Notes: a model not told the origin generated them from the letters alone. DNA of 32,000 bases from Candidatus Lokiarchaeum ossiferum (GCA_025839675.1 CP104013.1:5070001-5102000); one strand, 5' to 3'. Positions 1,800-20,508 are shown, counted from the stretch's first letter. Numbers and translations are program-made.

Positions 1800-1815
1800 A
1801 GAACACATGTAAGAG

Positions 1816-3134: not shown

Positions 3135-3140
3135 AGGTGA
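3135..3140 (+). promoter_or_regulatory. Shine-Dalgarno-like AGGTGA, 6 nt upstream of the TTG start of rfbF
   Basis: Read directly: aataAGGTGAaaaaacTTG. Confidence 0.55.
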
Positions 3141-3146
3141 AAAAAC

Positions 3147-3917: not shown

Positions 3918-3918
3918 G

Positions 3919-3927
3919 TTTTTTTTT
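3919..3927 (+). terminator. Oligo-T (T9) tract 1 nt after the rfbF stop codon
   Basis: Read directly: TAAgTTTTTTTTTcc. Oligo-T tracts are the established archaeal termination signal. Confidence 0.5.
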
Positions 3928-4096
3928 CCGAATCATAAATTTTAATATAAAATATTTTTTTAACAAACCAGAATTCATTTTTCTAATTGAATTAGGTATT
4001 GTAGAAATTGAAAACTAAACCTAAATAAATAACCCAGAAAAAATATATTGAGTTATTAACTTCATTGCTAGAAATAAACTAAAAACTACTTTAATT

Positions 4097-4101
4097 AGGA
4101 G
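4097..4101 (+). promoter_or_regulatory. Shine-Dalgarno-like AGGAG, 10 nt upstream of ATG 4112
   Basis: Read directly: ttAGGAGatttattgaaATG. Confidence 0.45.
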
Positions 4102-4111
4102 ATTTATTGAA

Positions 4112-4948: not shown

Positions 4949-6091
4949 TTATTTTTTAAGAAAGAATTCTTTTATAGAATCTATTATATAATTTTGTTCT
5001 TCTTCAGAAAAAGTTAAGGAAATCGGTAATGTTAATATTTTCTTGGATATTTTTTCCGTCACTGGCAAATATCCTTCAGAATATTTATATTTCAACTTAT
5101 AATAACTCTTTAAATGTATTGGGGCGAAATAAATTTTAGTAAAAATGTTTCGTTTCATCAAATAATCTTGAAGTTCTTCTCTTACAAAAGGATCTTTTAC
5201 TAAAATACTATAAAGTTGGTATACATTCCTAGATCCAAAATATTCTGGTAATATTTCTATTTCCGAAATATCTTTTAGGTTTTTATCATAGTAGTTGCCA
5301 ATTTTACGCCTTTTTTTGATTAAAAATTCAATTTTTTCGAGTTGAGATATTCCTAAAGCAGCACATATGGTTGGCATTCGATAATTATAACCTACTTGAA
5401 CATAATCTTCCATATGAATATCGGAGAAATAGTCAATATTCTTTTGTTCTACCCGACCATGTGATCTTATTAATATTAATTTCTCATATAAATCTTGATC
5501 ATTGGTTATAATTGCTCCTCCTTCTCCAGTAGGTAAAATTTTGTTCTGACAAAAACTTAATATTGCAGAATCTCCAATTGTGCCGGCATAAAAGTTGTCA
5601 ATTTTTGCTCCAAAGCTTTCTGCATTATCTTCTATCAACAATAAATTGTTCTTTACTGCAATGTCTTTCAATTTATGAATATTTTTGCATACTTTGCCAC
5701 CGTAGTGTACTGGAATGATTGCCTTAGTTTTTGAAGTAATTTTTCGTTCAACATCAACGGGATCTAAACCCAGGGTTTCATCTTCAATATCAGCAAAAAT
5801 TGGAGTGGCTCCAGCCAAAATTACCGCATTTGCAGTTGCAATAAAAGTGAAGGATGGTACAATCACTTCTCCACTTGTTATTCCATATGCGAGTAGTAAT
5901 GAATGGAGTGCAGCTGTGCCATTACAAAATGCAAGAGCATACTTACAATTAAAGAACTCACTTATTTTCTTTTCGAATTCTTTAATTTCTGGACCAACAG
6001 CCCAATATGAGCCCCGCTTTATAATATTGGAAACATTTTCAACATCCGATTTATCCCAATATATATCAAATAATGGAAATTTTGTCCTCAT
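4949..6091 (-). CDS. DegT/DnrJ/EryC1/StrS-family PLP-dependent sugar-nucleotide 4-aminotransferase (PglE/LegC/PseC-like)
   Basis: Motifs CNGTAALHSLL, VIVPSFTFIATAN, LIEDNAESFG and SFCQNKILPTGEGG (Schiff-base Lys). It starts 6 nt after the stop of the upstream dehydratase gene. Confidence 0.9.
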   Translation of the reverse strand: MRTKFPLFDIYWDKSDVENVSNIIKRGSYWAVGPEIKEFEKKISEFFNCKYALAFCNGTAALHSLLLAYGITSGEVIVPSFTFIATANAVILAGATPIFADIEDETLGLDPVDVERKITSKTKAIIPVHYGGKVCKNIHKLKDIAVKNNLLLIEDNAESFGAKIDNFYAGTIGDSAILSFCQNKILPTGEGGAIITNDQDLYEKLILIRSHGRVEQKNIDYFSDIHMEDYVQVGYNYRMPTICAALGISQLEKIEFLIKKRRKIGNYYDKNLKDISEIEILPEYFGSRNVYQLYSILVKDPFVREELQDYLMKRNIFTKIYFAPIHLKSYYKLKYKYSEGYLPVTEKISKKILTLPISLTFSEEEQNYIIDSIKEFFLKK

Positions 6092-6097
6092 TTTCTC

Positions 6098-7153
6098 TCA
6101 CTTTAACAAATCTAAATCATTTAACAAAGCACTTATTTCTCCTTTTGTTAATGGAGTTTGATTTTCAGTACTATAAATAAAATCTTCATTCACCTTTACT
6201 TTTTGATAATCTGTATTTCTGGGCAATCTTTCATGAACATCAAATCCTAATGAAGGATAGATGATATATAGATCATCAGTATCATAACAACTAACATACT
6301 CTATTGGAGATATTAATTCTTCATCATATTTTTCTCCAATTCTAGGACCGGCAATTTTGATCTGTATTGAATCTGGATTTTTTCCGATTTTAGGTGCATA
6401 CTCTTCAATTATTACTTCAATAAGGTCTCTAATGAAGATAGTATTCATTTTTAAAACAAAAATTTCACTACCTTGTGATTTTGTCATAGCTCTTAAAACT
6501 AAATTAACCGCTTGATCAATCGACATGAAAAATCTTTTCATTTTTTCTCCAGTCAAAGTCACTTCATTCCCGGATTTAATATTGTTTTTAATTAATGGTA
6601 TTATTGATCCTCTTGATCCTAAAACATTACCAAATCTAACACAGGAAATTTTTAATTTATGAGTGCCTTTTGAGCAGCTTTTCGAAATACATATTCGTTC
6701 ACCTAACATTTTTGTTGCTCCCATCGCGGTTGTAGGAGAAACTGCTTTATCAGTAGAAATGTGAATTAAATTTTTTATTTTCATTTCAACTGCAGCTTCA
6801 ATGATGTTTTCCAGCCCCAGTACATTAACTGTGATTGCTTCCATTGGATTATATTCACTTATTGGAACATGTTTTATTGCAGCGGCATTGAAAACATAAT
6901 CCATTTCATCCATTGCTTTTTTTACTCTTTTATAGTCCCTGATATCTCCGAGCAAGAACCTTAATTTTTTTGTGTGACTTTCTAATTTTACCTTCATTTC
7001 CCATAATTCATTTTCTGAATTAGAAAGTATACGAATAACTTTAGGATTATATTTTAGCAGTTGGATCACTATTTCAGAACCAATTGTGCCTGTTCCACCC
7101 GTGACCAAAATGGATTTATCTTGAAAAAAATTTAGAAGGTCTTTGTATTCCAT
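6098..7153 (-). CDS. UDP-N-acetylglucosamine 4,6-dehydratase, Polysacc_synt_2 (CapD/PglF/PseB/FlaA1) family
   Basis: Motifs ILVTGGTGTIGSE, GDIRD, VFNAAAIKHVP and ISTDKAVSPTTAMGATKMLGE. The track ORF begins at TTG 7204 with a hydrophobic 17-aa leader. ATG 7153 (MEYKDLL) is preferred and has a TTTTTTAAA box about 22-31 nt upstream. Inverting versus retaining chemistry cannot be decided by eye. Confidence 0.85.
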   Translation of the reverse strand: MEYKDLLNFFQDKSILVTGGTGTIGSEIVIQLLKYNPKVIRILSNSENELWEMKVKLESHTKKLRFLLGDIRDYKRVKKAMDEMDYVFNAAAIKHVPISEYNPMEAITVNVLGLENIIEAAVEMKIKNLIHISTDKAVSPTTAMGATKMLGERICISKSCSKGTHKLKISCVRFGNVLGSRGSIIPLIKNNIKSGNEVTLTGEKMKRFFMSIDQAVNLVLRAMTKSQGSEIFVLKMNTIFIRDLIEVIIEEYAPKIGKNPDSIQIKIAGPRIGEKYDEELISPIEYVSCYDTDDLYIIYPSLGFDVHERLPRNTDYQKVKVNEDFIYSTENQTPLTKGEISALLNDLDLLK

Positions 7154-7276
7154 AATGTATAATATTCGTAGATTGTTTAAAAAATTGATAAATACAAGAA
7201 TCAAAGAGATATTTTTGTTTGAAGATAAGTCAATTCTCTAATTAAATTTTTAAAGAAATATAAATATCGTTTAATC
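7154..7276. promoter_or_regulatory. Divergent promoter region (dehydratase operon to the left, FemAB-like gene to the right)
   Basis: A/T boxes lie at archaeal TATA-like distances from the starts. TTTTTAAA (7246-7253) is 24-31 nt upstream of GTG 7277. TTTTTTAAAC on the minus strand (7175-7184) is 22-31 nt upstream of ATG 7153. Such boxes are frequent by chance in DNA this AT-rich. Confidence 0.35.
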
Positions 7277-8356
7277 GTGCAAATATTAAACACAAAATCA
7301 TCTTGGAATGAGGTATTAAAAAAAAAATTTCCAAAATTTAATGATATTTATTTTTGCTATGAGTATTTCCAAATATACTCTGAAAATTATAATGGTGTAC
7401 CGGAGGCTATTTATTGGGCAGATTCTAACGTTGAAATTTTTTGGACTCACATTGTTAGAGGGATTGATCATCTTAATTTAAATAAGAATTATGAGTTCTT
7501 TGATCTTACCACTCCATACGGATATGGTGGGCCATTATTCAATATTTTGAATGATAAAGGGGTAAAAGAATCGATTTTAATTTTTTTTAAGGAGTACTCA
7601 ATTTATTGTAAAAAGAACAATTACATAAGTGAATTCATACGTTTTCATCCTTTGCTTAAAAACCATAAACTATTAACTGATATAAGTGAGATTCAGCTTC
7701 AATATCTAAATGATGTCGTTGCTATTGATTTAACCAAAGATAAACCTGATATTTTTAGTAATTTTAAAAAGAATAAAAGATATCAGATTAGAAAATCCGA
7801 GAAAATGGAATGTAAAGTCATAATTGACGAAAATCCGCAATTATCAGACATTAAAAGTTTTATAGACTTATACTATCAGACTATGGACAAGAACACTGCT
7901 TCAAATAAGTATTATTTCTCTGAAAAATTCATTCTAAATCACTTTGAAATGCTTCATGGTAGAATAATTGTAGCTAAAGCAATATTGGCTTCAGAAATTG
8001 TTGGCATGAGTTTGTTTATATTTGGTAATGAATATATTCACTATCACTTATCTGGTAGTAAAAAGATCAAAGGCTTATACCCCTCAGACATGATTCTCTG
8101 GTATATTGTAAAATGGGCAAAAACACAGAATAATAAATGTTTCAATTGGTTTCATTTGGGAGGTGGCAGAGGTACTAATGATAGTTTATTTAAGTTCAAA
8201 TCCGGATTTTCCCAACACACATTTCCATTCTATCTTGGTAAAATAATCTTCTGCCCAAAGGAATATGAGAAGTTAAGCAAAAAAAATCCGAATTGTGAAG
8301 AAAATGAAACATTTTTTCCACCATACAGAAAAGGATTTGATGAAAATATTATATAA
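7277..8356 (+). CDS. FemAB/BioF2-like GNAT-fold acyl(aminoacyl)transferase
   Basis: Motifs FKKNKRYQIRKSEK, a central MSLFIFGNEYIHYHLSGS, and LWYIVKWAKTQNNKCFNWFHLGGG resemble FemAB/Acetyltransf_6 proteins found in glycan loci. GTG start. Confidence 0.6.
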   Translation: MQILNTKSSWNEVLKKKFPKFNDIYFCYEYFQIYSENYNGVPEAIYWADSNVEIFWTHIVRGIDHLNLNKNYEFFDLTTPYGYGGPLFNILNDKGVKESILIFFKEYSIYCKKNNYISEFIRFHPLLKNHKLLTDISEIQLQYLNDVVAIDLTKDKPDIFSNFKKNKRYQIRKSEKMECKVIIDENPQLSDIKSFIDLYYQTMDKNTASNKYYFSEKFILNHFEMLHGRIIVAKAILASEIVGMSLFIFGNEYIHYHLSGSKKIKGLYPSDMILWYIVKWAKTQNNKCFNWFHLGGGRGTNDSLFKFKSGFSQHTFPFYLGKIIFCPKEYEKLSKKNPNCEENETFFPPYRKGFDENII

Positions 8357-8357
8357 T

Positions 8358-9461
8358 TCAAATATTTTTAAAAATCTCATCCAACTTGCTTAATTTTTCA
8401 ATATAATCTTTTGGAATATACCTATGATCTATTGGAATCGTAAGAACTCTTTCACTCAACTTTGTTTCTTCTTTACATACATCTTGAATACTAAACGGTA
8501 AAATCCAATGAATTGGAGTAAATATTTTTAATTTAATAAATTCCTTCTTGTATTTCTCTCGAATTGTGTTTGATGGGAATTTGAGGAGAAAAAAAGAAGG
8601 TAAGGTTAATGGTTTTTTAAAAAAAGTATATTCTTTTTTTGTTTTTTTTAAGAAAAATTGTGCATTTGCTTCTCTTCTATTCTTTGTAATCTTGTAACTG
8701 ATCTTTTTTAATATATCTAAAGAAATTTCTGGGATCTTCTCAAGGTTATACTTCTCTTTTTTTTTTTCCTTTTCTTCTTCGTATTCGTTATATAATTTTA
8801 AAAAATGTTTTTTTAGATTTACTCTTTCTTTTTCTGAATTCGATTGAAAGTAGTATTTCTTTAGAAACATCGCTTCAAGCATTGTTTCATAGTTTGTTGG
8901 ATTCCTCAATTTTTTTTTTTTTGGATTTTCCTGGAATGAGTAAACGACACCACCATCAGGTATTGGAAATATTTTTCTTAAACTCGCAAACAAATAGATA
9001 TTTTCATGAACGAGATTGAATCTTGTTGTGTTTAGTATTGAATGTGAGATATCAATTATTACAATACAACCGTTATTAAGTAATTGCTGTATTTCATCTT
9101 GAGAAATTTGTTCAATTCCGAAATAATCGATAATCAAAACAATCGAGTTCTTTATATTAAAATTTATTTTTGGGGATAAATCGTCTGATTGTTCATAATG
9201 TGCATAATCGAGATCCAATTCTGAAAAAGGTTGGATTATTGATTCACAAAGGTACTTGGGGATCAAAATTTGATTTTTTCTTGCTTCAACTTCATTTTGA
9301 ATTAAGATCCATTTCAATGCCTGGCGTCCATCTCTAATGAATTCGAAGTTCGGATAATTTTTATCTATTTTCTGAATCAAGTAATTGTAACAAGAATTTT
9401 CTTCTTTTATGTCAATCAATTCAGGCATTTCAAAAAATCCACCGATTTCATCATGAATCAT
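8358..9461 (-). CDS. Highly divergent DegT-like (fold-type I PLP) protein of unknown specificity
   Basis: By-eye alignment to the DegT layout: RDGRQALKWIL, ILIPKYLCESIIQP, VIIDISHS, FASLRKIFPIPDGG (Lys at the Schiff-base position) and a C-terminal VLTIPIDHRY. It carries a Lys/Glu-rich insert (EEKEKKKEKY). The ATG overlaps the neuB-like stop by 11 nt and is preceded by GGAGGA. Confidence 0.45.
   Translation of the reverse strand: MIHDEIGGFFEMPELIDIKEENSCYNYLIQKIDKNYPNFEFIRDGRQALKWILIQNEVEARKNQILIPKYLCESIIQPFSELDLDYAHYEQSDDLSPKINFNIKNSIVLIIDYFGIEQISQDEIQQLLNNGCIVIIDISHSILNTTRFNLVHENIYLFASLRKIFPIPDGGVVYSFQENPKKKKLRNPTNYETMLEAMFLKKYYFQSNSEKERVNLKKHFLKLYNEYEEEKEKKKEKYNLEKIPEISLDILKKISYKITKNRREANAQFFLKKTKKEYTFFKKPLTLPSFFLLKFPSNTIREKYKKEFIKLKIFTPIHWILPFSIQDVCKEETKLSERVLTIPIDHRYIPKDYIEKLSKLDEIFKNI
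8910..8922. repeat. T13 homopolymer inside the divergent DegT-like CDS (encodes PKKKKL on the minus strand)
   Basis: Counted directly from the sequence. A T11 lies in the same gene at 8757-8767. Confidence 0.95.
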
Positions 9462-10512
9462 GGAAATCCTCCGGTTTCAGCGCTTGGTCTTTTAAAATAT
9501 CCTTGTTGAATTTTCTACCAATAAATTCGTTCAATCTTGAGGGTACTATGAAACCATTTGCTCGTTTCATACTTACCATATTTTCCTCTAAAATACTTCC
9601 TTTTTCAATGAAATTTTTCGCAACTACGCTTTTTCTCACAATTTTAGCATTTTCAAGTTCTATATTTGTTGGTTTTTTCTCCCAACTGCCCATAATTTTT
9701 TCTATTTTTCGAATTTCTTCAACCAATTCTTTCAATTCAGTTGGTGATAGGGAACATTTATGATCTGGGCCTTTAGCGCTCTTATCATAAGTGAAATGTT
9801 TTTCAATCACGCTTGCTCCCATTGCAACTGCTGTAATTGAAGCTAATATCCCTATTGTGTGATCTGAATATCCAATATCTATTCCAAAATTCTTTCTTAA
9901 TGTTAACATAGAATTCATATTTACATCATCTAAATCAGTAGGATATTCCGAAGTACAATGCAATAAAATGATTTTGTTATTTCCCATACCAACAATTTCT
10001 TCATAAGCTCTTCTAATTTCTATTAAAGTGGCCATTCCAGTTGAAAGTATGATTGGTTTGTTCATGCTTGCTATTTTCTTTAGAAAAGGTATATTTGTAA
10101 CCTCACCCGATCCTATTTTAAATAATTGAACTCCTAAATTATTTAGAAACTCAGCACTTTTTTCTTCATCTGGGGTTGAGAGAAATATCAGACCTTTTTT
10201 TTCAGCATAATTTTTTAAAATTTCAAACTCATTATACGATAATTCTAATTTTTTTAACATTTCAAACTGTGATTCTTCTACACCTGTATTTTTAGTTTGA
10301 TATTTCGCTTGAATTACATTTTCTGTGAGTAATTCTTCAGTTTTCCAAGTTTGAAATTTCACCGCATCCACATTTGCATTCTTTGCAATATCAATCAATA
10401 ACTTTGCCTTATCTAATTCCCCATTATGATTTACACCTGCTTCTGCTATTATAAAACAAGGTTCTCCATCACCAATTCTCCGGTCTTGTATTTTAATTTT
10501 ATTTTTCACCAA
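9451..10512 (-). CDS. neuB: NeuB-family nonulosonic acid synthase (legionaminic/N-acetylneuraminic/pseudaminic acid synthase) with C-terminal SAF domain
   Basis: Motifs IGDGEPCFIIAEAGVNHNGELD, VDAVKFQT, GYSDHT and a C-terminal SAF-like VAKNFIEKGSILEENM. The start is TTG 10512 or GTG 10509. Confidence 0.9.
   Translation of the reverse strand: MVKNKIKIQDRRIGDGEPCFIIAEAGVNHNGELDKAKLLIDIAKNANVDAVKFQTWKTEELLTENVIQAKYQTKNTGVEESQFEMLKKLELSYNEFEILKNYAEKKGLIFLSTPDEEKSAEFLNNLGVQLFKIGSGEVTNIPFLKKIASMNKPIILSTGMATLIEIRRAYEEIVGMGNNKIILLHCTSEYPTDLDDVNMNSMLTLRKNFGIDIGYSDHTIGILASITAVAMGASVIEKHFTYDKSAKGPDHKCSLSPTELKELVEEIRKIEKIMGSWEKKPTNIELENAKIVRKSVVAKNFIEKGSILEENMVSMKRANGFIVPSRLNEFIGRKFNKDILKDQALKPEDFHDS
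9467..9472 (-). promoter_or_regulatory. Shine-Dalgarno GGAGGA inside the 3' end of the neuB-like gene, 5 nt upstream of the overlapping ATG 9461
   Basis: The minus strand reads ccGGAGGAtttccATG. Together with the 11-nt stop/start overlap this suggests translational coupling. Confidence 0.6.
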
Positions 10513-10526
10513 TTATCAAATCCAAT

Positions 10527-11690
10527 TTAATATGTGTTAATTTTTTGTAAGATATTTTTGCTAAAATCAAAGTTTGTTAATATTTCTAATACTTTTTCAC
10601 TTGTTTTTCCATTTCCATATGGATTTATACATTTATTCAGCTTTAGTTGGAAGTCCTTATCGTATAACGCTTTATTGGTGCCTTCTAATATTTGTTTTTC
10701 AGAATAATCAACATCAATAACATTAATTCCTCGTTCACGATTTTGTTGTCTTGTACCGATATTAACTACTGGAAGTTTGAAAGATGGAGCTTCTGTAATT
10801 CCGCTACTGGAATTACCAATTAACACACTTGCATATTTAAGCAAGTTCAGATAATCTTCATGTGATAAATTCTTATAAACTTGAATAAAATCAAGATTAG
10901 AGCACAATTTGATTTGTTTTATAATTTCTCTGCCTCCAGAATCAGAATTTGGATAAATAATTATTGTTTGTTCTCTGAGTTTCTTTATCACATTCAGAGT
11001 TTTTATAATTTGATTCCTTGCATCCTTGGATTCAATTGTATTTGCATGTTGAATGACAACTATTAGGGGTTTGTTAAGATTTATATTGAATTTTTGGGAA
11101 AATTCCTCCTTCGTCATATATTTCAAGTTCAATATTTTATCTAAAGAAGGTTCCCCTACAATGAATACCCTTTTTGGATTTTCTCCCATCTTAATGATTC
11201 TATTTGCGCTCTCTTTTGTCGCAGGAAAATGAATATGTGCAAATTTAGTTATTGCATGTCTCACAGATTCATCTATTCCTCCAGTACGATCTCCTCCCGA
11301 AAAATGAATGATTGGAATATTCATATATGCTGCGCTTATGCTCATTGCTAATGCTTCAGTACGATCCCCTAGAACAATGACTGCATCAGGAAAAGTTTCT
11401 TTCAACACAGTTGCCGCACCAATAATTCCTTTTCCTACACTTTTCGCCATTGAAATATTATCATCTGACCGAGTATCCATCTCAAATTGATGCTGTACTT
11501 CAAATCCATCTTTAATTATATTATTAATTGAATTTCCAAATTCTTGTGATAAATGCATACCAGTAACTATTAATTCCAATTCAAATTTTTCACTATTTTT
11601 GATTGCTTGCATAATTGGTTTTAAAATTCCATAATCTGCTCGAGTACCTGTTAAAAATGCAATTCTTTTCTTTTTCATTGATAAAACCAT
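10527..11690 (-). CDS. neuC: NeuC-family hydrolysing UDP-sugar 2-epimerase (NeuC/LegG-like)
   Basis: Motifs KRIAFLTGTRADYG, VLGDRTEALA and HFSGGDRTGGIDESVRHAITKFAHIHF. An alternative start is Met5 (11678). Confidence 0.9.
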   Translation of the reverse strand: MVLSMKKKRIAFLTGTRADYGILKPIMQAIKNSEKFELELIVTGMHLSQEFGNSINNIIKDGFEVQHQFEMDTRSDDNISMAKSVGKGIIGAATVLKETFPDAVIVLGDRTEALAMSISAAYMNIPIIHFSGGDRTGGIDESVRHAITKFAHIHFPATKESANRIIKMGENPKRVFIVGEPSLDKILNLKYMTKEEFSQKFNINLNKPLIVVIQHANTIESKDARNQIIKTLNVIKKLREQTIIIYPNSDSGGREIIKQIKLCSNLDFIQVYKNLSHEDYLNLLKYASVLIGNSSSGITEAPSFKLPVVNIGTRQQNRERGINVIDVDYSEKQILEGTNKALYDKDFQLKLNKCINPYGNGKTSEKVLEILTNFDFSKNILQKINTY

Positions 11691-11806
11691 TTTGTATTTA
11701 ATTATTCATGCGATTTTATTAATTTTTAGAAGCTCTTTTCTTAAGATCGCTAGATATAGGTTATGTATAATAATATAAATATATTATTTCAACATAGTGA
11801 TTATGT
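11691..11806. promoter_or_regulatory. Divergent promoter region (neuC-neuB operon to the left, GNAT gene to the right)
   Basis: ATAATAATATAAATATATTA (11767-11786) is centred about 30 nt upstream of ATG 11807. The GTGA at 11797-11800 could be a weak SD. Confidence 0.35.
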
Positions 11807-12316
11807 ATGGAAATTTTCATTGAAATTGCGAATGAAGAAGATTATGAAGGTTTTTATAATTTAAAGATCGATAAAAATAATGTTTTTTGGTCTGGTTTTA
11901 AAAAACCACCAAAAAAAAAAAAATTAAATGAATGGTTTTTAAAACAACTATCCAGACAAGATCGCATAATTTTTTTAGTCCGTTTAAACGATAATCCGAA
12001 AAAACCTGTTGGATATTTATATTTAGATTTTTTAGAAGATGATATCGATAGCATTTCAGTAAGTTATGGAGTTCATAGCGATTTTATGGGAAAAGGGATT
12101 GGAACAAAAATTATTGCTCATGCTTTCGAATATGTACGTGCCAACTATACAACTACGAAGCTATTAGTGGGATGGGTTTCTACTAAAAACATTGCTTCTA
12201 TGAAAGTTTTCAAAAAAAATAATTTTATTGAAACAAATGAAACTAAAAAAGTACTATTAGTTGATTTTAATGAAGAAATTACCATGATTAAATATATTAA
12301 AAACATCAACCATTAA
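11807..12316 (+). CDS. GNAT-family N-acetyltransferase (PseH/RimJ-like size and layout)
   Basis: GNAT motif A FMGKGIGTKIIAHAFEYV, and a C-terminal NIASMKVFKKNNF. Contains an A13 tract (11911-11923) encoding KKKK. Confidence 0.7.
   Translation: MEIFIEIANEEDYEGFYNLKIDKNNVFWSGFKKPPKKKKLNEWFLKQLSRQDRIIFLVRLNDNPKKPVGYLYLDFLEDDIDSISVSYGVHSDFMGKGIGTKIIAHAFEYVRANYTTTKLLVGWVSTKNIASMKVFKKNNFIETNETKKVLLVDFNEEITMIKYIKNINH
11911..11923. repeat. A13 homopolymer inside the GNAT CDS (encodes PKKKKL)
   Basis: Counted directly from the sequence. Confidence 0.95.
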
Positions 12317-13028
12317 TTTCTTCTTTTATTTTTGTACTTATTATGAATTCTGCAAGTAATAAATCCCATTCTTCATCAATATCTACACTTCTATGGGGTG
12401 GCATAATAGAAATCTTTGTATTTTCATTGAATTGTGGATTATCACTGAAAAGAATTTCATGTTTGAAAACATTAAATCCATCGTTCATTTCATAAACTTG
12501 AGGTGAATCTCTACGATCATTTATTTTCTTTTCAATTTTTTTCACATATTGGATTTTTCCATCCAAAAATTCAACCATGTTGAAATAGGGACTCTTACTT
12601 GCGACATTTACACTGAAGACATTAGATGCATCTTCGTCAATTAAGATTTTTATAGAATTTTCCATATCTTCTAAATTCTTTAATGGTGTAGCAACACCTA
12701 GATCTATAATAACATCAAATTTTTGGTCCAAATTCTCTTCAACCCATTTTGTTGCATGTTGAATTACATCAATTCGTGAAATTTTGCCTGAAGCTAAAAA
12801 ATCTGGTCGTTTAAAATGGATATCAAATCCGTGTTTTTTTACAACTTCCATAATCTCTTGGGAATCAGTAGAAATGATATATTCATCAATTAAAGAACTC
12901 TCTCTAACCAAATTCAATGAATGGATGATTAATGGTTTATCTCCTAAAATTCTAATATTTTTTCCCTTCACTCCTTGAGATCCTCCTCTAGCACAAATTG
13001 TTGCTAAAATCTTCTTATTCTTATACAT
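12306..13028 (-). CDS. neuA: Acylneuraminate cytidylyltransferase family (CMP-nonulosonate synthetase; NeuA/LegF/PseF-like)
   Basis: Motif ILATICARGGSQGVKGKNIRILGDKPLI (CTP_transf_3 P-loop-like) and ISTDS. Its 3' end overlaps the convergent GNAT gene by 11 nt. Confidence 0.85.
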   Translation of the reverse strand: MYKNKKILATICARGGSQGVKGKNIRILGDKPLIIHSLNLVRESSLIDEYIISTDSQEIMEVVKKHGFDIHFKRPDFLASGKISRIDVIQHATKWVEENLDQKFDVIIDLGVATPLKNLEDMENSIKILIDEDASNVFSVNVASKSPYFNMVEFLDGKIQYVKKIEKKINDRRDSPQVYEMNDGFNVFKHEILFSDNPQFNENTKISIMPPHRSVDIDEEWDLLLAEFIISTKIKEEING

Positions 13029-13263
13029 TCAATTCAACTTCCAAGTAATGATTTATAATTATTTATATCAGCATTTAATGTTATGCATTAAAGTATTGTA
13101 GAAATATGATTACTGGTAATAAGATGTTGATTTTCCTTTTAATGGGCGAAAAAAGTTGACTTTTTTATGAAAAGTTAAAATCAAACGAGAAAACTCTAAA
13201 TTTAAATTACGGCGTTCGCATTTTCAACCTTGAAGATATTTTAGATGTTTCATTCGTTCCTTC

Positions 13264-14166
13264 CTACAGTAATTCAAAAATTTGAGTACCTTCTTCTAAA
13301 CTTGTAATATTTTTTTGCTCTTTTATTTCAATAAACTCCTTAATTTCTTCAATATAACATTCATTGAAATTAAATAAATCTGGTTTTTCAATTAATTTGT
13401 CTTCAATCCGGAGAATTTTGTTCACAAAATCAACTTCTATCAATTTCTGATTTTCACCTATAATTTCCATTCCTCTTTCGGATTTTCGATAATAATCTAG
13501 TTCAACATCGACAATAAACTTGTCATAATGATATATACCTTTAAAAAAATCGCAAGTATCGATATTTAAACTACTGAGTTTTTCTCTCCAAGTGAATAAT
13601 TTCTTTTTTGGATTACCAAATATCCACAACATATAATTTAATTCATGAGAAAGATCTAAATCAACCCCACCTCCTAAAACTTTCTTAGCGCTGTAGGATT
13701 CTTCATAATTTCGATCTGGGCGCCATTCTGGGAGGTATTGCCCTGCAAAAATTTTTACAGATCGAATTTTGTGCTTAAAATATTTAATATACTTCTGAAT
13801 TTCTGTAAACACACCTAAAAATCTCATATCATATCCAATGGTAATGTTTAGGCCGAATTTTTCTTTAATTTCTAAGATTTTTTTTGAATTTTCTCTAGAA
13901 CCGTCTACGGGCTTTTCTATTAAGAAATTTTTGCAATCAGTCTTTTCTAAAACATGTTTTAAAGAAATCAAGTGATGGGATGTCGGAGTTGCGATAATAG
14001 AATGTGATATGTGGCCATTATTATTTAAGTTATCAACAAAATGGATATCCTTTGATTTATCTGGATATTTTGTTAGTATTATTGGTTTGATTCCAAGAGA
14101 AATCAAATTTTTTGCGTGTCTTTTTCCAATCGAACCATATCCTAAAATTAGAATTTTATACTCCAT
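13264..14166 (-). CDS. Gfo/Idh/MocA-family NAD(P)-dependent oxidoreductase (PtmF-like position)
   Basis: N-terminal Rossmann KILILGYGSIGKRH and an EKP motif (FLIEKPV). Located next to the CMP-transferase gene. Confidence 0.7.
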   Translation of the reverse strand: MEYKILILGYGSIGKRHAKNLISLGIKPIILTKYPDKSKDIHFVDNLNNNGHISHSIIATPTSHHLISLKHVLEKTDCKNFLIEKPVDGSRENSKKILEIKEKFGLNITIGYDMRFLGVFTEIQKYIKYFKHKIRSVKIFAGQYLPEWRPDRNYEESYSAKKVLGGGVDLDLSHELNYMLWIFGNPKKKLFTWREKLSSLNIDTCDFFKGIYHYDKFIVDVELDYYRKSERGMEIIGENQKLIEVDFVNKILRIEDKLIEKPDLFNFNECYIEEIKEFIEIKEQKNITSLEEGTQIFELL

Positions 14167-14224
14167 GCTTAGATAGAATTTTTCAAAATTTTAAAAGTAT
14201 GACAATCTATTTAAAGTGATAATA
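14167..14224. promoter_or_regulatory. Very compact (58 bp) divergent promoter region between the Gfo/Idh/MocA and SDR genes
   Basis: A single block, TTTTTCAAAATTTTAAAAG, lies 15-35 nt from both start codons. This would imply short or absent 5' leaders in both directions. Confidence 0.3.
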
Positions 14225-15019
14225 ATGGAAAATAATTTTCTTGAAAACAAAGTAGTAGTGATTGCAGGAGCATTAGGAAGAATAGGGAAAGCATTTGTTG
14301 AATTGGTCATTGAAAGTAGTGGTGTTCCAATACTTGCTGATATTGATATTGATAACAGTAAATCTTACTTAAAAAGTCTTGAAGACAGATTTAATAAGCA
14401 ATTTGATTTTATATCTTTAGATATAACCTCTAAAAAGTCATTAAATTCAATGATCCAAAAAATAAATTCGAATTATGGGCGAATTGATGCATTTGTGAAC
14501 ACAACATATCCTCAAGTTAGTGGTTCAACCGTAGTATTTGAAGATGTTTCATATGAAAATTTTTGTAAGAATTTAAATCTGCATCTGGGAGGATATTTTT
14601 TAGCTTCACAACAGTTTGCTATTTTTTTTAAGAAGCAATCTTATGGTAACATTATAAATATCTCTTCTATCCAGGGTGTTGTGGCACCAAAATTTGATAC
14701 TTATGATGGAATATTAATAAATGGGAATGTTATGGGTTGTGAACCTGAATATCCTGCAATTAAAGCAGGGATTATTATGTTGACTAAATACATGGCAAAA
14801 TACTTCAAGAATTCAAATATTAGATTCAATTCAATAAGTCCAGGAGGGATACTTGAGTCTCAACCAGAAAAATTTCTAAAAAAATATAATTCTTATTGCT
14901 CATCAAAAGGAATGCTTGATTCAGAAGATTTGAAAGGTGCTCTTTTATTTTTATTATCAGATATGTCCAAATATGTAAATGGACAAAACATTGTAGTTGA
15001 TGATGGTTGGACCCTTTGA
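14225..15019 (+). CDS. Short-chain dehydrogenase/reductase (classical SDR; PtmA-like position)
   Basis: Motifs VVVIAGALGRIG, NISS and YPAIKAG (YxxxK), with a C-terminal NGQNIVVDDGWTL. The track starts at GTG 14216; the first ATG is at 14225. Confidence 0.8.
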   Translation: MENNFLENKVVVIAGALGRIGKAFVELVIESSGVPILADIDIDNSKSYLKSLEDRFNKQFDFISLDITSKKSLNSMIQKINSNYGRIDAFVNTTYPQVSGSTVVFEDVSYENFCKNLNLHLGGYFLASQQFAIFFKKQSYGNIINISSIQGVVAPKFDTYDGILINGNVMGCEPEYPAIKAGIIMLTKYMAKYFKNSNIRFNSISPGGILESQPEKFLKKYNSYCSSKGMLDSEDLKGALLFLLSDMSKYVNGQNIVVDDGWTL

Positions 15020-15153: not shown

Positions 15154-16104
15154 TTATCCTCTAATTTTTTTTAAAATAGCGATATCTTCAGATTGTTCCT
15201 GGATCGTTTTCAATTTTATCCAATCTTTATTCAAGAAGGCACTTGTTTGTAAAAACAGTCCTGGTTTAAATTTCCTATCTAACTCATCATCAATTTCAAC
15301 CTTTTCAACTTTCACACTTCCTATTTTCTGAATTTTCAATTCTTCTAATGGTTTGAAAATCAATCGATTCTCTCTTGTTAATAATTCAATCCACCATCTA
15401 CCTGGACTTTCCCAATTTGCATGATAAGAGAATAAAGCTCCTCTTGAAGATACGCCTGCTCCCGTAAAAATTGATCCTTTTTTGAACCATGAGAGATTTC
15501 CTGTTTTAAAGCATTTTATGTCCTCCGGATTTCCTCCTAAGAAGAAAGCCATGTCAATGACATGTGTAGAATTGTGTAATAGCCAATTTTCCTTAATGCC
15601 GGTTGCTTTTTTTATGTCTTTAATTACGTGACTCCATTCAGTGAATTCAAATAGAAAAGATTTCACACCGCCATCTTTCTTGATAATTTCTTCCGCTTTA
15701 ATTGTAGATGCAAAGAAACGTCGATTGTAAGCTAAAAGTACATTTGAATTATTTTTAATGGCTAATTCATTTAAGCTCAATATATCTTCATCATCTACAC
15801 CACCAGGTTTCTCAAGAAGTATATTTTTAATTTTCTTATTAATTAAAATTCTAGTTACTTTTCCCAATTCAGAACCCGTTACTGCCACAATTGCATTTTC
15901 TGGAATTGAAATGCAATTGTCGATCCATTTTTTTATTCCCCCTGCTATTGCAACTATTCCGGTCTCTTTTTTGAATTTAGTAACTCCTTCTTCACTCCTC
16001 CCAACAACGACAAAAGGAACCTCCAAATTATTCAACACTTTGGAATATTCGATTGCCATATATCCTGATCCTATGAGTAATATTGTATTATTTTTTTTTT
16101 GCAT
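15154..16104 (-). CDS. Gfo/Idh/MocA-like oxidoreductase
   Basis: Motifs ILLIGSGYMAIEY (Rossmann), LLEKPGG (EKP motif) and AYNRRF. A T10 tract (16091-16100) lies immediately after the start codon. Confidence 0.6.
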   Translation of the reverse strand: MQKKNNTILLIGSGYMAIEYSKVLNNLEVPFVVVGRSEEGVTKFKKETGIVAIAGGIKKWIDNCISIPENAIVAVTGSELGKVTRILINKKIKNILLEKPGGVDDEDILSLNELAIKNNSNVLLAYNRRFFASTIKAEEIIKKDGGVKSFLFEFTEWSHVIKDIKKATGIKENWLLHNSTHVIDMAFFLGGNPEDIKCFKTGNLSWFKKGSIFTGAGVSSRGALFSYHANWESPGRWWIELLTRENRLIFKPLEELKIQKIGSVKVEKVEIDDELDRKFKPGLFLQTSAFLNKDWIKLKTIQEQSEDIAILKKIRG

Positions 16105-16117
16105 TTTTTATCACTGT

Positions 16118-17095
16118 TTAACTAAATGGTAGGATTTCATATTTTGAATCTGAAAAGTTATTTATATAATCCAGAACTGGTTTAAAAATAGATAAATGAA
16201 GCTTTTTTGAGTCTGAATATGATGTTAATTCACACGAATTTGTCTTAATTAAATCTTCAATTAAAATATTTGTTAATTCACTTTGATATGGGAATTTTAT
16301 TTCCTTTTTTATCCATTTTTCAGATATCTGTGGATTGTATGTGAGAATTTCCAGTTCAGATTCTTTTAATATTATTCTCTTTTCATCTGTATAAATTTCA
16401 TTGATTAATGGCAGATTTCCTGAAGGTAAACAATGCAAAAATCCCGATGTACCATTTTTGAATTTAATATTTAATTTTCCATTCATCTCATAAAACCCTT
16501 GACGTTTACTTTTGGATAGTTTTGGAATTAATTCGCTTGTATCAACAACAAATTCGGTAGAATCAGTTAAAAAAGCAATTATGTCAATGAAATGTATCGC
16601 GTTTGACATCAAATTAAATTTACTCCCTGAAATTGAAAATGAAAATTTATTTCCTCCAATAATATCTTTGATTTCTTTATACACAAAAAACATTCTTCGT
16701 GGACAATTTACCCAAGCTTCAGATTTATTGGTCTTTAACAAATTTTCAACATAATTATAATCCTCAAGTTTCTGAAACAGCACTTTTTCTAAAACAAATT
16801 TCTCCACGTGATTTTTAGCCAGTAGATTTTCAATAACCATTTTACGTACATCGGAATTTGTTGCAATAATCGCTACTTCAAAATCAATATCACTAAAATC
16901 TATCTTATTATGATAAGAAATTGTATGTTTCGCTTCACATTCTTCAACGGAATTATATCTTTGTTCAGCAATCTTCAGTGAGTTTTGATTTGGATCGACG
17001 ACATGGATTTTCAGAGGAAAATTAATTTTCTTTAAAGCTTGTAGGTGTCTACTTCCTAAATTTCCTGTCCCAATAACACATATATTTTTTTTCAT
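16118..17095 (-). CDS. Gfo/Idh/MocA-like oxidoreductase (divergent)
   Basis: ICVIGTGNLGSRHLQAL Rossmann and VLEKV in the EKP position. Its ATG overlaps the upstream stop (ATGA at 17092-17095). Confidence 0.55.
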   Translation of the reverse strand: MKKNICVIGTGNLGSRHLQALKKINFPLKIHVVDPNQNSLKIAEQRYNSVEECEAKHTISYHNKIDFSDIDFEVAIIATNSDVRKMVIENLLAKNHVEKFVLEKVLFQKLEDYNYVENLLKTNKSEAWVNCPRRMFFVYKEIKDIIGGNKFSFSISGSKFNLMSNAIHFIDIIAFLTDSTEFVVDTSELIPKLSKSKRQGFYEMNGKLNIKFKNGTSGFLHCLPSGNLPLINEIYTDEKRIILKESELEILTYNPQISEKWIKKEIKFPYQSELTNILIEDLIKTNSCELTSYSDSKKLHLSIFKPVLDYINNFSDSKYEILPFS

Positions 17096-18960
17096 AATGT
17101 TTTTACTTCCTCGCTAATTTTCTTTTTTTTTTTAAAAATTCTTCTAATTATATTTATTAATGTAGATAATTTTGCTTTGAGGTTTAACTTCAATGCGGCA
17201 ATATTTTTCTTCAAATTGTTACTTTCTCTGTCTTTTTTTTTTGTTCCTATAATTTGGGTAATTAAAAATTTCAATTCTACCGCCATTTTAAGATAAACCC
17301 TCCGTTTATAGTGTCTAATATTATCAAGAATATCTTCCTGCTTAACAATTTTTCTAACATCTAATAGATAACAATTCTTATGAGATTTAATGAATTCATC
17401 TAAACAATTATTCATTTCTATGTGTCTATTTAGGCTATTAGTTTCAACTTTATTTGACGAAGGTGGATGAACTTCAGAACCATTAATGAATATTATTGGT
17501 TTTCCACCAATTTTGTCTACAATATATTCAAGATTTTTCTTAAATTCAGATACAGAAATTAGCCCTATGTATTCAAAATTTTCTTTAAAGAAATTGTGAA
17601 AATTCTTATCCATTCCAGAAATTTTTGCGTTCCGAAATCTCGATTCAAATTCATCCGGATCTTCACTTATAATATTCGTATAGCCTCCGTAAGCGATTTT
17701 AATCTCATTTTTCTTTGATTGATACATCTCTTGTGTGTAATCCATCAACACGCTATAAACTAATATATCGTATGAATTAAGATCAAATATATTTGTTTCA
17801 AAATTCATTTGATCCAAAAATGGGATATTTGATATCATTGCATTTTTTTGATTTTTAGACAATATCTGGGAATTGATAATAAATGAAGTGTGTTCTCTAT
17901 GAATTGGATGGTTATTTTCTAAAACAGAATTGAATTCCCTTAGAATCTTCAAATTTCGCTGATACAAATAATGATCCATTTGCTCTAAATCGCATCCTCC
18001 TTTTATTAATATCGAGAGTTGCTTTTTACTTAACTCCGTCTTATTATGGAGATTTTTTTTTTTTTTAATTTCTTGCTTAATCCAATAAACATTTTTGCTC
18101 TTACTTAATGGAGTTGCTACTTCTTCGATAATCTCAATCTTTGGATAATTTAAAGATTTGTAAATATAGTTTTCAACTCCTAAATTTAAAATTCTACAAG
18201 AGAAGATGAAATGTTCCAGATAATTCTCTTCTTTTTTCAAAGAAACAAACCCTGCAATTCCATAGTCTCCGTATTTGTCTGTAACTTTGATTATAAAATT
18301 TATATAGCTATTATCTTTTAATAAAACGGATAGTTTTTCCAAAGTTATTCTATTCTTTGTATAATTCAATTGATTCGTTCTATTTATTAATTCATGAATT
18401 CGGTTAATATTGTCCAAACAATCATATTGAATCATTATTTTGATTTTAGATTGTTTCAAAAATTCCTCATTGTCGGAATAATTCATTTGAGCTTTATTTT
18501 TTTTTTCTAGAATTTTATACTGTTTCAATCTTGTTAGTTCAGAATCGTTTTTTCCGATAAATGCAGGATGAGATTTTATTTTTTGAATAAACTCTGGTCC
18601 GACAACATTGACATTTGGATTGTAAAATGCTACTTCTTCCCTATTGAGGTGATTATCATCAATAAACAATACATTTGTCTGTCTAAGTTGTGTATTATTA
18701 ATTATGTTTTTAATCATTTGACCTTTAGGCTCCCAGCTAATATGCGGGAAGATAAAATATTTCCAAATTCCTATATTTTCTAATTCTTTCTTGGCATTAT
18801 TAAAATCATTCTTTGAAGCAATTGCATTCATAATTCCTTTTTTGGAAAGATTTTTAATCAGATCTATCCTCTTATCAGTTATTCTAATCGAACCTTCTGA
18901 AAGAGTTCCTTTCCAAAGTGTATCATCCAGATCCCAAATAATCAATTTAATATTTTCCAC
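17092..18960 (-). CDS. HAD-superfamily subfamily IIIC / FkbH-like protein with an about 320-aa C-terminal extension of unknown function
   Basis: HAD motifs IIWDLDDTLWKG (motif I), ASKND and FIDDN, followed by RTNQLNYT, YGDYGIAGFV and FIFSCRILNLGVENY (FkbH-type domain with SCR cysteine). Residues about 300-622 were not recognised. GTG start with an in-frame TGA five codons upstream. Confidence 0.75.
   Translation of the reverse strand: MENIKLIIWDLDDTLWKGTLSEGSIRITDKRIDLIKNLSKKGIMNAIASKNDFNNAKKELENIGIWKYFIFPHISWEPKGQMIKNIINNTQLRQTNVLFIDDNHLNREEVAFYNPNVNVVGPEFIQKIKSHPAFIGKNDSELTRLKQYKILEKKNKAQMNYSDNEEFLKQSKIKIMIQYDCLDNINRIHELINRTNQLNYTKNRITLEKLSVLLKDNSYINFIIKVTDKYGDYGIAGFVSLKKEENYLEHFIFSCRILNLGVENYIYKSLNYPKIEIIEEVATPLSKSKNVYWIKQEIKKKKNLHNKTELSKKQLSILIKGGCDLEQMDHYLYQRNLKILREFNSVLENNHPIHREHTSFIINSQILSKNQKNAMISNIPFLDQMNFETNIFDLNSYDILVYSVLMDYTQEMYQSKKNEIKIAYGGYTNIISEDPDEFESRFRNAKISGMDKNFHNFFKENFEYIGLISVSEFKKNLEYIVDKIGGKPIIFINGSEVHPPSSNKVETNSLNRHIEMNNCLDEFIKSHKNCYLLDVRKIVKQEDILDNIRHYKRRVYLKMAVELKFLITQIIGTKKKDRESNNLKKNIAALKLNLKAKLSTLINIIRRIFKKKKKISEEVKTL
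18053..18066. repeat. T14 homopolymer inside the FkbH-like CDS (encodes IKKKKN on the minus strand)
   Basis: Counted directly from the sequence. The same gene also carries T11 (17123-17133), T10 (17233-17242) and T10 (18497-18506). Confidence 0.95.
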
Positions 18961-19029: not shown

Positions 19030-20508
19030 TTATTTGGCATTTGATATTACGTATTTCATGAATTTTTTGGGGTTAATAGTTTCCATAACAAATAAATAAT
19101 CATTTTTATTTACTAATTTCATAAAAATCAAGACGAGAAAATAACCAATAACTGTGAAAATTGTCAAAATTATTAAAAGTACAATGTTTTCTCCGATTAA
19201 ATTGTTTATAATTATGGATATTGCTAAAAATGAAAGGTTAATAAATATGAGCTGTGTGGAAATTTTTGAAATGTTTCCAAAATTAAAATCTTTGTTTACA
19301 TAATAACGACCTACAGGAATTGATACGATATATCCTAGATTGGGACCTATTGATAAACCTATTAGCCCTAAAGTGGGAATTAAAAATAACCAACTAATTA
19401 TTGTGAAGAATAACCCTACTAAGCCAAAAACCAATACCAATTTATTCCTTCCGGATGCTATTAATATTGTGCCATAAGGATTCCATAATCCCCACGAAAA
19501 TAAGGTAAAAATGGAAAACAAAAGGAATTTTGTTCCATGAATGTAATAAAATTCCCCAAAGAAAACTTTGATAAATAGTGGTGCAAGGATAAACGCTCCT
19601 ATCAGCATTAATCCCCAAAATATCATCATATATCTTTCAAATAGTTGTACTTTGAATTTCAACTGTTCATGATTATTTTTAGCTATCAAAGAAGAAAAAG
19701 AAGGGAGAAACAGTGAAGATAAAGACTGTTGAATCAAAAACAAAATTCTTAGGATATTCTGAATGACATAATATACTCCCAAAATGGATTCATCGTAATG
19801 TTGCAGGAAAATAAAAGGTCCTAAATTTTGAATGCTTATTGATATCAAACTTGGTATTAGTAAAGGAATTGAGATTTTTAAATAATCTTTTAACAAAGAT
19901 TTAGAGGGTTTTGTTAATTTAATGTCTTTAAGGTAGTATATATAAAATAACAAAGATATAAAATTGGCAATTATAATGCTTAAGCAATATAAGAAGAAAC
20001 TTTCTGCAATAAAAATAGCATAAGCTTTAAACGTTCCCAAAATAAGGCTATTAATGAAAGTAGGGATTTGCATTTTTACTATTTTTAATTGAGCTTGAAG
20101 AGTTGTTGAAAAGACAAAATTTAATGATTGTAAAAAGGAAGAAATGAAATATATTTCTAATATCTGAATTTGTATAGGATTATTTGATATAATTTCATTT
20201 TCAATTTGGTAATCTAAAACGAAGTAGATTCCTATTGAAGTAACGATGATTAGTACAAGTTTTAGTATCAAGTAAGTTGAAAAATATATGTTCGTTTCTA
20301 ATTTCTGCTCTGATGTCTTCTTAAGATGTGCAGTTTGAAAACTTAAATCAGAAAAAAAATTGAAAAATGCAAAAATGGACACTGCAATCGATAAAAAGGC
20401 AAATGATTCTGGGGAAAATTTCTTTACTGCAAAAAAAAAAATTCCTACACTTATTATTTGACTGAAATATTTAGAAATTAAGATTAAAATCGAATCTTTT
20501 GCAGCCAT
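19030..20508 (-). CDS. Wzx/AglR-like polysaccharide (lipid-linked oligosaccharide) flippase, MOP superfamily
   Basis: 492 aa and almost entirely hydrophobic, with about 12-14 predicted helices by eye. The N-terminal LISKYFSQIISVGIFFFAVKKF is typical of polysaccharide biosynthesis (Wzx) proteins. Glycan-cluster context. Confidence 0.7.
   Translation of the reverse strand: MAAKDSILILISKYFSQIISVGIFFFAVKKFSPESFAFLSIAVSIFAFFNFFSDLSFQTAHLKKTSEQKLETNIYFSTYLILKLVLIIVTSIGIYFVLDYQIENEIISNNPIQIQILEIYFISSFLQSLNFVFSTTLQAQLKIVKMQIPTFINSLILGTFKAYAIFIAESFFLYCLSIIIANFISLLFYIYYLKDIKLTKPSKSLLKDYLKISIPLLIPSLISISIQNLGPFIFLQHYDESILGVYYVIQNILRILFLIQQSLSSLFLPSFSSLIAKNNHEQLKFKVQLFERYMMIFWGLMLIGAFILAPLFIKVFFGEFYYIHGTKFLLFSIFTLFSWGLWNPYGTILIASGRNKLVLVFGLVGLFFTIISWLFLIPTLGLIGLSIGPNLGYIVSIPVGRYYVNKDFNFGNISKISTQLIFINLSFLAISIIINNLIGENIVLLIILTIFTVIGYFLVLIFMKLVNKNDYLFVMETINPKKFMKYVISNAK

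Follow-up and report, generated by a model that had tools for sequence, protein, structure and literature searches.

What does an FkbH-type enzyme do in a glycan locus that offers it no recognisable acyl carrier protein (ACP)? The question is raised by a 32,000-nucleotide stretch of the genome of Candidatus Lokiarchaeum ossiferum (GCA_025839675.1 CP104013.1:5070001-5102000; hereafter the window), in which a gene for a 622-amino-acid (aa) FkbH-like protein is followed by two genes for Gfo/Idh/MocA-like proteins, here called GfoA and GfoB, close to an island of genes for nonulosonic acid (NulO) synthesis. The original prediction, made from this DNA alone, took the three genes for one module, an FkbH enzyme with two dehydrogenases supplying a glycerate-derived acyl group to the glycan. 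We found that the observation behind it was partly confirmed and its interpretation partly supported. We propose instead, and would give the proposal an even chance, that the 622-aa protein is a self-contained, carrier-independent acyltransferase acting on a surface glycan, to which it would most probably add glyceroyl.

Architecture of the 622-aa protein

The N-terminal half of the protein (aa 1-300) is a genuine member of the FkbH/HAD-IIIC family, as had been predicted. It matched the FkbH profile TIGR01686 with 178.3 bits (curated cut-off 146.65), aa 4-270 being aligned to positions 3-285 of the 323 in the profile, and the HAD-IIIC profile TIGR01681 at 46.4 bits against a cut-off of 35.75, while the Pfam HAD models gave borderline matches only. 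The HAD residues D10, D12, S49-K50-N51, K79, D101 and D102 are invariant in 52 homologues. As the canonical FkbH reference for the cysteine we took the protein from a Streptomyces plasmid locus (L087), where the gene is accompanied by those for a 3-hydroxyacyl-CoA dehydrogenase, an ACP (confirmed with PF00550), an acyl-CoA dehydrogenase and an O-methyltransferase (OMT) in the order FkbK/ACP/FkbI/FkbH/OMT, the classical methoxymalonyl-ACP operon. The two FkbH proteins are 30% identical over ~270 aa, and D10, D12, S49, D101 and D102 are common to both. C255 of the S-C-R motif (codon 18196-18198), the cysteine singled out in the original prediction, falls on the Cys of T-S-C-R in the Streptomyces protein and is of the catalytic type. 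It is present in 52 of 52 homologues and, together with C323 described below, is one of the only two cysteines invariant across these full-length sequences.

In its HAD-IIIC core and Cys-bearing subdomain, its HAD motifs and its S-C-R cysteine, the protein resembles the FkbH/OzmB/ZmaN glyceryl-S-ACP synthases, which serve methoxymalonyl-ACP, hydroxymalonyl-ACP and tetronate pathways. Unlike these enzymes, it carries a C-terminal addition of ~320 aa (an SGNH fold and a basic helix) and lies in a glycan context, and at the Lokiarchaeum locus the ACP partner, the FkbK/FkbI/FkbG neighbours and the polyketide synthase context are all absent. A phmmer search of the PDB gave the HAD half a weak match (E 0.0036) to BF1531 of Bacteroides fragilis, a structural-genomics entry (3slr). 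Foldseek returned MDP-1 and BF1531 (3slr, E 8e-7) as the best PDB matches of this half, rather than phosphatases of the YrbI type, with the KDN-9-P and Kdo-8-P phosphatases also among the matches. The domain order differs, as the HAD of BF1531 sits at residues 223-353 behind an unrelated N-terminal domain.

The remainder of the protein (aa 300-622) matched no Pfam or NCBIfam profile, even at E<=10. The earlier statement that this region matches nothing thus holds for sequence profiles but not for fold, and the accompanying guess of something weakly SGNH-like near the C-terminus was well aimed. An AlphaFold2 model of the full-length protein, built with 52 homologues, had a mean predicted local distance difference test score (pLDDT) of 90.7, and a model of aa 306-579 alone, built with 72 homologues, reached a pLDDT of 95.1 and a predicted TM-score (pTM) of 0.92. 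When the domain was compared with the PDB by Foldseek, the top 19 matches were all SGNH/GDSL proteins or designs on that scaffold, the best being EstL5 (8ik1, E 7.6e-6), with target-normalised TM-scores of 0.52-0.61. The other matches included 7e16, the acyltransferase 8zbc, 1yzf, Cj0610c, MsAcT (2q0q) and Est24, and further the OatA catalytic domain (5ufy), SsfX3 and CE2/CE3 esterases. Aa 312-552 are therefore confidently predicted to adopt the three-layer alpha/beta/alpha SGNH fold.

Seven positions of this domain are nearly fixed among the 72 homologues (identity down to 24%): G321 (72), C323 (70), D324 (70), S403 (70), E496 (68), N517 (72) and H550 (68). The motif G321-G-C323-D (G321-x-C323-D) stands after the first strand, at the start of the first helix, and its third position is Cys in 70 of the 72 and Ser in none. 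We infer from the predicted fold that Cys323 (codon 17992-17994) would occupy the topological place of the serine nucleophile of the G-D-S motif, although profile-profile alignment did not place C323 on that serine. Only the C-terminal half of the alignment to the SGNH family is plausible; there H550 (codon 17311-17313), which stands before the last helix, is weakly paired by hhalign (E 0.0033, probability 9.8%) with the last His of D-H-H-H. The block-V Asp would correspond to N547 or D546, neither of which is conserved. In comparison with SGNH/GDSL carbohydrate enzymes (OatA, PatB/Ape, MsAcT, SsfX3, CE2/CE3), the domain shares the overall fold and may share the conserved His before the last helix and the nucleophile-type residue behind strand 1. 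It differs from them in giving no profile match, in having Cys for the GDS serine within G-[GP]-C-D, in its unconserved block-V Asp position and in ~70 extra inserted residues. The proposed acyl source is also different, an in-cis enzyme thioester as opposed to acetyl-CoA or a membrane AT3 domain. The basic helix that ends the protein is modelled with low confidence beyond ~aa 570 and might serve to contact the membrane or another protein.

Family, neighbourhoods and carrier proteins

A database search showed that the fusion is not particular to this genome. The full-length sequence gave 2193 matches, and the same architecture is common to more than 2000 homologues of ~600 aa. The best 120 of the 2193 are nearly all 565-625 aa long, with 37-51% identity and query coverage of at least 87%, and they include proteins from Marinifilum, Nonlabens, Dokdonia, Sphingobacterium, Clostridium, Verrucomicrobiota, Planctomycetes and Helarchaeota; the family as a whole is spread over Bacteroidota, Firmicutes, Actinobacteria, Planctomycetes, Proteobacteria and Asgard archaea. 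A search with the C-terminal domain alone against 1.84 billion representatives yielded 400 clusters, and in almost all of them the domain spans ~residues 310-570 of a ~600-aa protein, directly behind an FkbH half. Since the domain occurs almost only in this position, the FkbH and SGNH halves evolve as one unit. By these sequence comparisons the FkbH-SGNH architecture is a conserved family and not a local fusion.

Longer members of the family carry additional domains. Four are fused to GT2 (P0221, P0244, P0251 and P0258), one to GT2 and LicD (P0241) and one to a Maf/MptE-like domain (P0160), the last encoded at a locus with a CMP-sugar synthetase, a second Maf and several GT2 genes. In Komagataeibacter the fusion is to DUF1796 and TPR, beside a GT61 glycosyltransferase. 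There, on a plasmid (L088, 4633-7719), the full FkbH-SGNH unit (29% identity over 589 aa) forms the C-terminus of a 1028-aa protein annotated as 'DUF1796 family putative cysteine peptidase', so that the public annotation misses most of this protein. Another FkbH-like protein (P0040) is fused to PF22674 (C2185-like_N).

We examined the gene contexts of homologues at 80 genomic loci, one Marinifilum locus and metagenomic loci. After de-replication into 32 taxon groups, a NeuB homologue lies at most 10 kb from the FkbH-like gene in 7 of the 32, and any NulO-type gene does in 11; two further, metagenomic loci (L082 and L093) also have NeuB. These contexts bear out the association with glycan and NulO genes that had been predicted. 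In Hymenobacter the FkbH-like gene is a fixed part of a complete pseudaminic acid (Pse) locus, adjacent to PseB and together with PseC, PseF, a PseG/H-like fusion with a C-terminal GNAT, PseI and GT4, and Pse loci with an FkbH-like gene are also found in Janthinobacterium and Enterovibrio. The legionaminic acid (Leg)-type locus of Nonlabens mirrors the window, with NeuB, NeuC and PtmE-, PtmF- and PtmA-like genes ahead of Wzx and the FkbH-like gene next after it. Wzx is often the direct upstream neighbour, and the order Wzx, FkbH-like recurs in L009, L042, L072 and L082. The gene also occurs in a NulO locus bearing NeuC/CMP-synthetase in a Flavobacteriales metagenome-assembled genome (MAG) and in the NulO loci L006, L050 and L093. 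L082 is Kdn-type, with Wzx, the FkbH-like gene, NeuB, a CMP-synthetase/HAD fusion and mannose-6-P isomerase. Other members of the family belong to polysaccharide clusters of the usual kind, which carry Bac_transf and Wzz/tyrosine-kinase genes.

These contexts bear on the kind of bond that would be formed. Kdn has no amino groups and the Pse loci keep their own GNAT at the PseH position, so that O-acylation is at least as likely as N-acylation. The N-glyceroyl-NulO of the original prediction is possible but too narrow, as homologues also stand in Kdn-type and non-NulO polysaccharide loci.

Several genes next to FkbH-like genes deserve separate mention. A Methyltransf_21/C2185-like_N (PF22674) unit follows the FkbH-like gene in L093 (3224-4348), and L089 (3071-4508) belongs with this observation; such a unit would fit O-methylation of glyceroyl, as in the di-O-methylglyceroyl-Pse of Campylobacter jejuni. 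In a Flavobacteriales MAG (L023, 9046-9978) a D-isomer-specific 2-hydroxyacid dehydrogenase gene is directly upstream of the FkbH-like gene, and in a Solirubrobacteraceae MAG (L062, 1871-2812) a homologue of that dehydrogenase is encoded ~7 kb upstream. These dehydrogenases may relate to the 2-hydroxy-acid unit that is transferred.

One system in the literature is close by context. The flagellin glycosylation locus of C. jejuni contains cj1302, a gene with an fkbH domain, and the strain makes di-O-methylglyceroyl-Pse (PMC7099621). The gene of the window likewise lies with a Pse/Leg glycosylation island, a likeness of genomic context. Literature searches on FkbH with polysaccharide, on HAD-IIIC and on epilegionaminic acid with Gfo gave nothing relevant beyond cj1302. 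Besides cj1302, that locus has genes for several small ACPs and for a FabH-like protein, and the pathway there is presumably ACP-dependent.

With the Pfam PP-binding profile (PF00550) we scanned small open reading frames (ORFs), 7 from the window and 222 from intergenic stretches at most 8 kb from the FkbH-like gene at 52 non-Hymenobacter loci. Among these 229 ORFs only the control ACP of L087 was matched, in agreement with the original prediction, which saw no ACP-sized ORF in the window. No PP-binding gene had been called in L001, L082, L089, L093 or L094. ACP is not usually known from archaea. A phmmer search with E. coli AcpP was discarded as an ACP detector, as it missed the known ACP of L087 that served as the positive control.

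A proposed carrier-independent acyltransferase and its alternatives

Polyketide FkbH enzymes take the acyl group of 1,3-bisphosphoglycerate onto the Cys, and their HAD site cleaves off the 3-phosphate (PMC7489565). For the substrate, the relay from Cys to Cys and the acceptor of the 622-aa protein we infer the following course. Cys255 would attack the acyl phosphate of 1,3-bisphosphoglycerate, as in the polyketide enzymes, and the HAD site with D10/D12 would strip the 3-phosphate to give glyceryl-S-Cys255. The glyceryl group would then be relayed to Cys323 of the fused SGNH-like domain instead of to a phosphopantetheinyl ACP. There, Cys323 with His550 and Asn517 would take over the acyl group and pass it on to a hydroxyl (or amino) group of a sugar. 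A nucleotide-sugar or a lipid-linked repeat unit, still on the cytoplasmic side and not yet flipped by Wzx, would serve as acceptor, and at this locus the likely target would be a legionaminic-type NulO or a neighbouring residue. This model fits the glycosyltransferase fusions described above. It also fits the presence of CMP-Pse5Am7Gra in the nucleotide-sugar pool of T. forsythia, from which such modifications can precede transfer (PMC5420450), and the fact that the enzymes installing glyceroyl on Pse or Leg were still unidentified as of 2017 (PMC5378307, PMC5420450).

We extend this model only tentatively, rating the extension somewhat below an even chance, to a hitherto unrecognised enzyme class, widespread among bacteria and found also in Asgard archaea, in which the FkbH half captures 1,3-bisphosphoglycerate and the Cys-SGNH half passes glyceryl to surface sugars without carrier or CoA. 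This class would comprise the missing transferase for glyceroyl and, with partner methyltransferases, O-methylglyceroyl on NulOs and some polysaccharides. If so, glycolysis would be coupled directly to glycan decoration, FkbH chemistry would have its first ACP-independent use, and the SGNH fold would provide an example that uses cysteine. The family of more than 2000 members, annotated only as 'HAD-IIIC family phosphatase', is a concrete and genetically testable candidate. Non-carbohydrate substituents of NulOs and capsules shape antigenicity, phage recognition and immune recognition, and the Asgard archaeon carries a bacterial-style toolkit for NulO decoration.

A number of points weigh against the acyltransferase proposal. 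The use of 1,3-bisphosphoglycerate is extrapolated from polyketide FkbH enzymes, and the FkbH subdomain here lacks the last ~38 positions of the profile (286-323 unmatched), so that the part after the cysteine is shorter than the canonical one. The SGNH profiles PF00657 and PF13472 miss the C-terminal domain even at E<=10. The placement of C323 comes from topology and motif reasoning rather than from a residue-level superposition, the hhalign alignment to the SGNH family (probability 9.8%) put C323 off the GDS serine, and two short homologues have Tyr in place of Cys323. NeuB within 10 kb is a feature of only 7 of the 32 taxon groups, and the Marinifilum copies adjoin a sigma factor gene and have no glycan genes beside them. 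Finally, the ACP scan covered the window and the flanks of the loci, and an ACP encoded elsewhere in the genome is possible.

Of the alternatives, the one that fares best keeps the same relay but changes the donor, to lactyl or another 2-hydroxy-acyl phosphate, or the acceptor, to a lipid, a protein or a cell-wall polymer; we consider it unlikely, with perhaps a chance in the lower quarter of the scale. Some polyketide FkbH-type domains are reported in the bryostatin literature to deliver lactate-type units, and many homologues lie in non-NulO polysaccharide loci or outside glycan loci altogether. The 2-hydroxyacid dehydrogenase upstream in L023, its homologue in L062 and the methyltransferase behind the FkbH-like gene in L093 are also compatible with it. 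However, the protein shares the TIGR01686-defining residues of the glyceryl-forming enzymes, and the domains fused to family members are of glycosyltransferase type and not of lipid- or protein-modifying types.

Less probable still is a pair of hydrolases. The HAD half would then take the phosphate off a sugar phosphate, NulO-9-phosphate or another intermediate, while the SGNH-like half, as an O-acyl esterase, would remove acetyl groups in the manner of some NeuA esterase domains. The motifs of a HAD phosphatase are all intact, the KDN-9-P and Kdo-8-P phosphatases are among the Foldseek matches, and most structural neighbours of the SGNH-like half are esterases. This explanation, however, leaves the invariant FkbH-specific subdomain, Cys255 and the strict fusion of the two halves unaccounted for. 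The best structural matches of the HAD half are again MDP-1 and BF1531 and not the YrbI type, and the Kdn-type locus L082 already has its own HAD phosphatase, fused to the CMP-synthetase. No phosphorylated NulO intermediate is known in the Pse and Leg pathways. A role as NulO-9-phosphate phosphatase was accordingly rated unlikely for the 622-aa protein.

The GfoA-GfoB pair and the surrounding island

The two genes downstream had both been called Gfo/Idh/MocA dehydrogenases, a call that stands for the first and not for the second at the level of Pfam. GfoA narrowly passes PF01408 (26.3 bits against a gathering score of 24). GfoB has no Pfam Gfo profile match and shows weak similarities only, to iolG (20.5 bits), to Gfo-family oxidoreductases of the PDB and to a PtmF-like ORF of the island (13264-14166). 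Profile scans found no substrate-binding domain (PF02894/PF22725) in either protein, while the PtmF-like ORF shows PF22725 weakly, and a sequence search of the PDB was uninformative for both.

Comparison across genomes separates the pair from the FkbH-like gene. There are 671 GfoA homologues, of ~325 aa, and homologues of GfoA or GfoB (phmmer, E<=1e-5) are present at 0 of 81 FkbH-like loci. We inspected six contexts of GfoA homologues (L084, L085, L086, L090, L091 and L092). All six have a GfoB homologue, which is immediately behind GfoA in five and apart from it in L091; in L084 (Peptococcaceae bacterium BICA1-7) the gene behind GfoA encodes a protein 56% identical to GfoB. The six loci are all NulO-type, mostly legionaminic-type, and none has an FkbH-like gene. 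A CMP-NulO synthetase gene is found in five, often beside the Gfo pair, and these five also carry NeuB, NeuC-like, PtmE-like or HisH/HisF-like genes; L086 has a set of dehydratase, DegT and radical-SAM genes. Judged by this comparison, GfoA-GfoB is an independent accessory module, conserved in bacterial NulO loci, that is merely co-transcribed with FkbH here. That the pair oxidises or reduces the NulO or a precursor, for example in an epimerisation, is speculative.

The comparative data largely refute, and leave very little probability to, the notion that FkbH and both Gfo-like proteins act like FkbH/FkbK/FkbI to make an oxidised glycerate-derived (hydroxymalonyl/tartronyl) donor for NulO N-acylation: although the three genes share a strand, the first two overlapping at ATGA and the last two standing 13 nt apart, and are hence co-transcribed here, and the canonical methoxymalonyl operon does join FkbH with two dehydrogenases, GfoA/GfoB homologues neighbour none of the 81 FkbH-like genes and instead occupy six NulO-type loci without FkbH, the Gfo-like proteins differ in superfamily from FkbK (3-hydroxyacyl-CoA dehydrogenase) and FkbI (acyl-CoA dehydrogenase), which are enzymes of ACP-bound substrates where no ACP was found here, and overlapping gene ends are common in the island (e.g. 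9451-9461). The analogy drawn from the operon was tempting and wrong, and is corrected here.

Two candidates around the GfoA loci were set aside. A 609-aa unannotated ORF beside the GfoA homologue of L091 proved unrelated to FkbH-like genes, and BLASTP found no similarity between the C-terminal domain of the FkbH-like protein and either a stand-alone GDSL protein (L084) or a 294-aa protein (L085) encoded downstream of Gfo pairs. The former is a small SGNH protein encoded between the GfoB homologue and Wzx (L084, 9958-10698), with the motifs TDSLxxPR, GIVDCAPR and DHHHL, and its family is very small, with 8 matches in 5.8 billion proteins.

The genes discussed here are four successive minus-strand ORFs, from the Wzx/MOP flippase to GfoB, and are listed in Table 1 with the segments of the 622-aa protein. 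The gene coordinates of the original prediction, the motifs it quoted and the flippase upstream on the same strand were all verified, as were the overlap of the FkbH-gene TGA with the GfoA ATG (ATGA at 17092-17095) and the spacing of GfoA and GfoB by 13 nt. The flippase stop and the FkbH start are 69 nt apart. The 622-aa protein has a match of 100% identity in Candidatus Lokiarchaeum ossiferum, where it is annotated as 'HAD-IIIC family phosphatase'. The window is AT-rich (GC ~29%), and its composition shows no break around the FkbH-like gene. On the minus strand, A10 (16092-16101) and A8 (17085-17092) runs stand almost directly after the start codons (ATG) of GfoB and GfoA, respectively; slippage could occur at them, but they are probably just Lys codons of an AT-rich sequence.

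Table 1. Coordinates, in window positions, of the FkbH-SGNH gene, its segments and its neighbours
Feature	Position	Strand	Remarks
Wzx/MOP-type flippase	19030..20508	-	directly upstream of the FkbH-like gene
FkbH-SGNH protein, 622 aa	17092..18960	-	GTG start, TGA stop
HAD-IIIC phosphatase subdomain, ~aa 1-172	18445..18960	-	motif I D10-x-D12; S49-K50-N51; K79; D101-D102
FkbH-specific Cys-bearing subdomain, ~aa 173-300	18061..18444	-	R194-T-N-Q-L-N-x-T-K; S254-C255-R256
Lys-rich linker, predicted disordered, aa 301-311	18028..18060	-	pLDDT <50
SGNH/GDSL-fold domain (predicted), aa 312-552	17305..18027	-	AlphaFold2 and Foldseek
Long basic C-terminal helix (predicted), aa 553-622	17095..17304	-	last 69 residues: 21 K/R, 5 D/E
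GfoA, 325 aa, divergent Gfo/Idh/MocA-type Rossmann protein	16118..17095	-	start overlaps the FkbH stop
GfoB, 316 aa, partner of GfoA	15154..16104	-	Pfam Gfo match absent
Flanking legionaminic-type NulO island	4949..15019	.	profile matches

The island encodes an aminotransferase, a 4,6-dehydratase, a FemAB-like protein, an ORF of unrecognised family, NeuB, NeuC, a GNAT, a CMP-NulO synthetase-like protein, the PtmF-like Gfo protein and a PtmA-like SDR. NeuB scored 446 with TIGR03569 (cut-off 399.65) and NeuC 463 with TIGR03568 (cut-off 235.9); PseB-, PseC-, PseF- and PtmA-like matches are strong, yet under their equivalog cut-offs. The gene set of a legionaminic-type NulO locus, namely synthase, hydrolysing 2-epimerase, CMP-synthetase, 4,6-dehydratase and aminotransferase, is thus present. 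An Asgard archaeon here has a bacterial-style island (4949-15019 and 1-4846), which also includes rmlD and a CDP-glucose-type nucleotidyltransferase gene, and the uniform GC content across it gives no pointer to recent transfer. Inside the island, a 367-aa ORF (8358-9461, minus strand) has no Pfam or NCBIfam match, and in its start region it shares 11 nt (9451-9461) with the end of neuB. On the opposite strand (7277-8356, plus), the FemAB/Acetyltransf_6-like protein, recognised by weak matches, could attach an aminoacyl or other acyl group to a sugar. Beyond the flippase and divergent from it, a 660-aa protein (20768-22750, plus strand) shows a weak C-terminal likeness to TIGR04396, 'surface carbohydrate biosynthesis protein', and to Epimerase_2 (GT-B-like), and by these matches it is a candidate glycosyl or NulO transferase.

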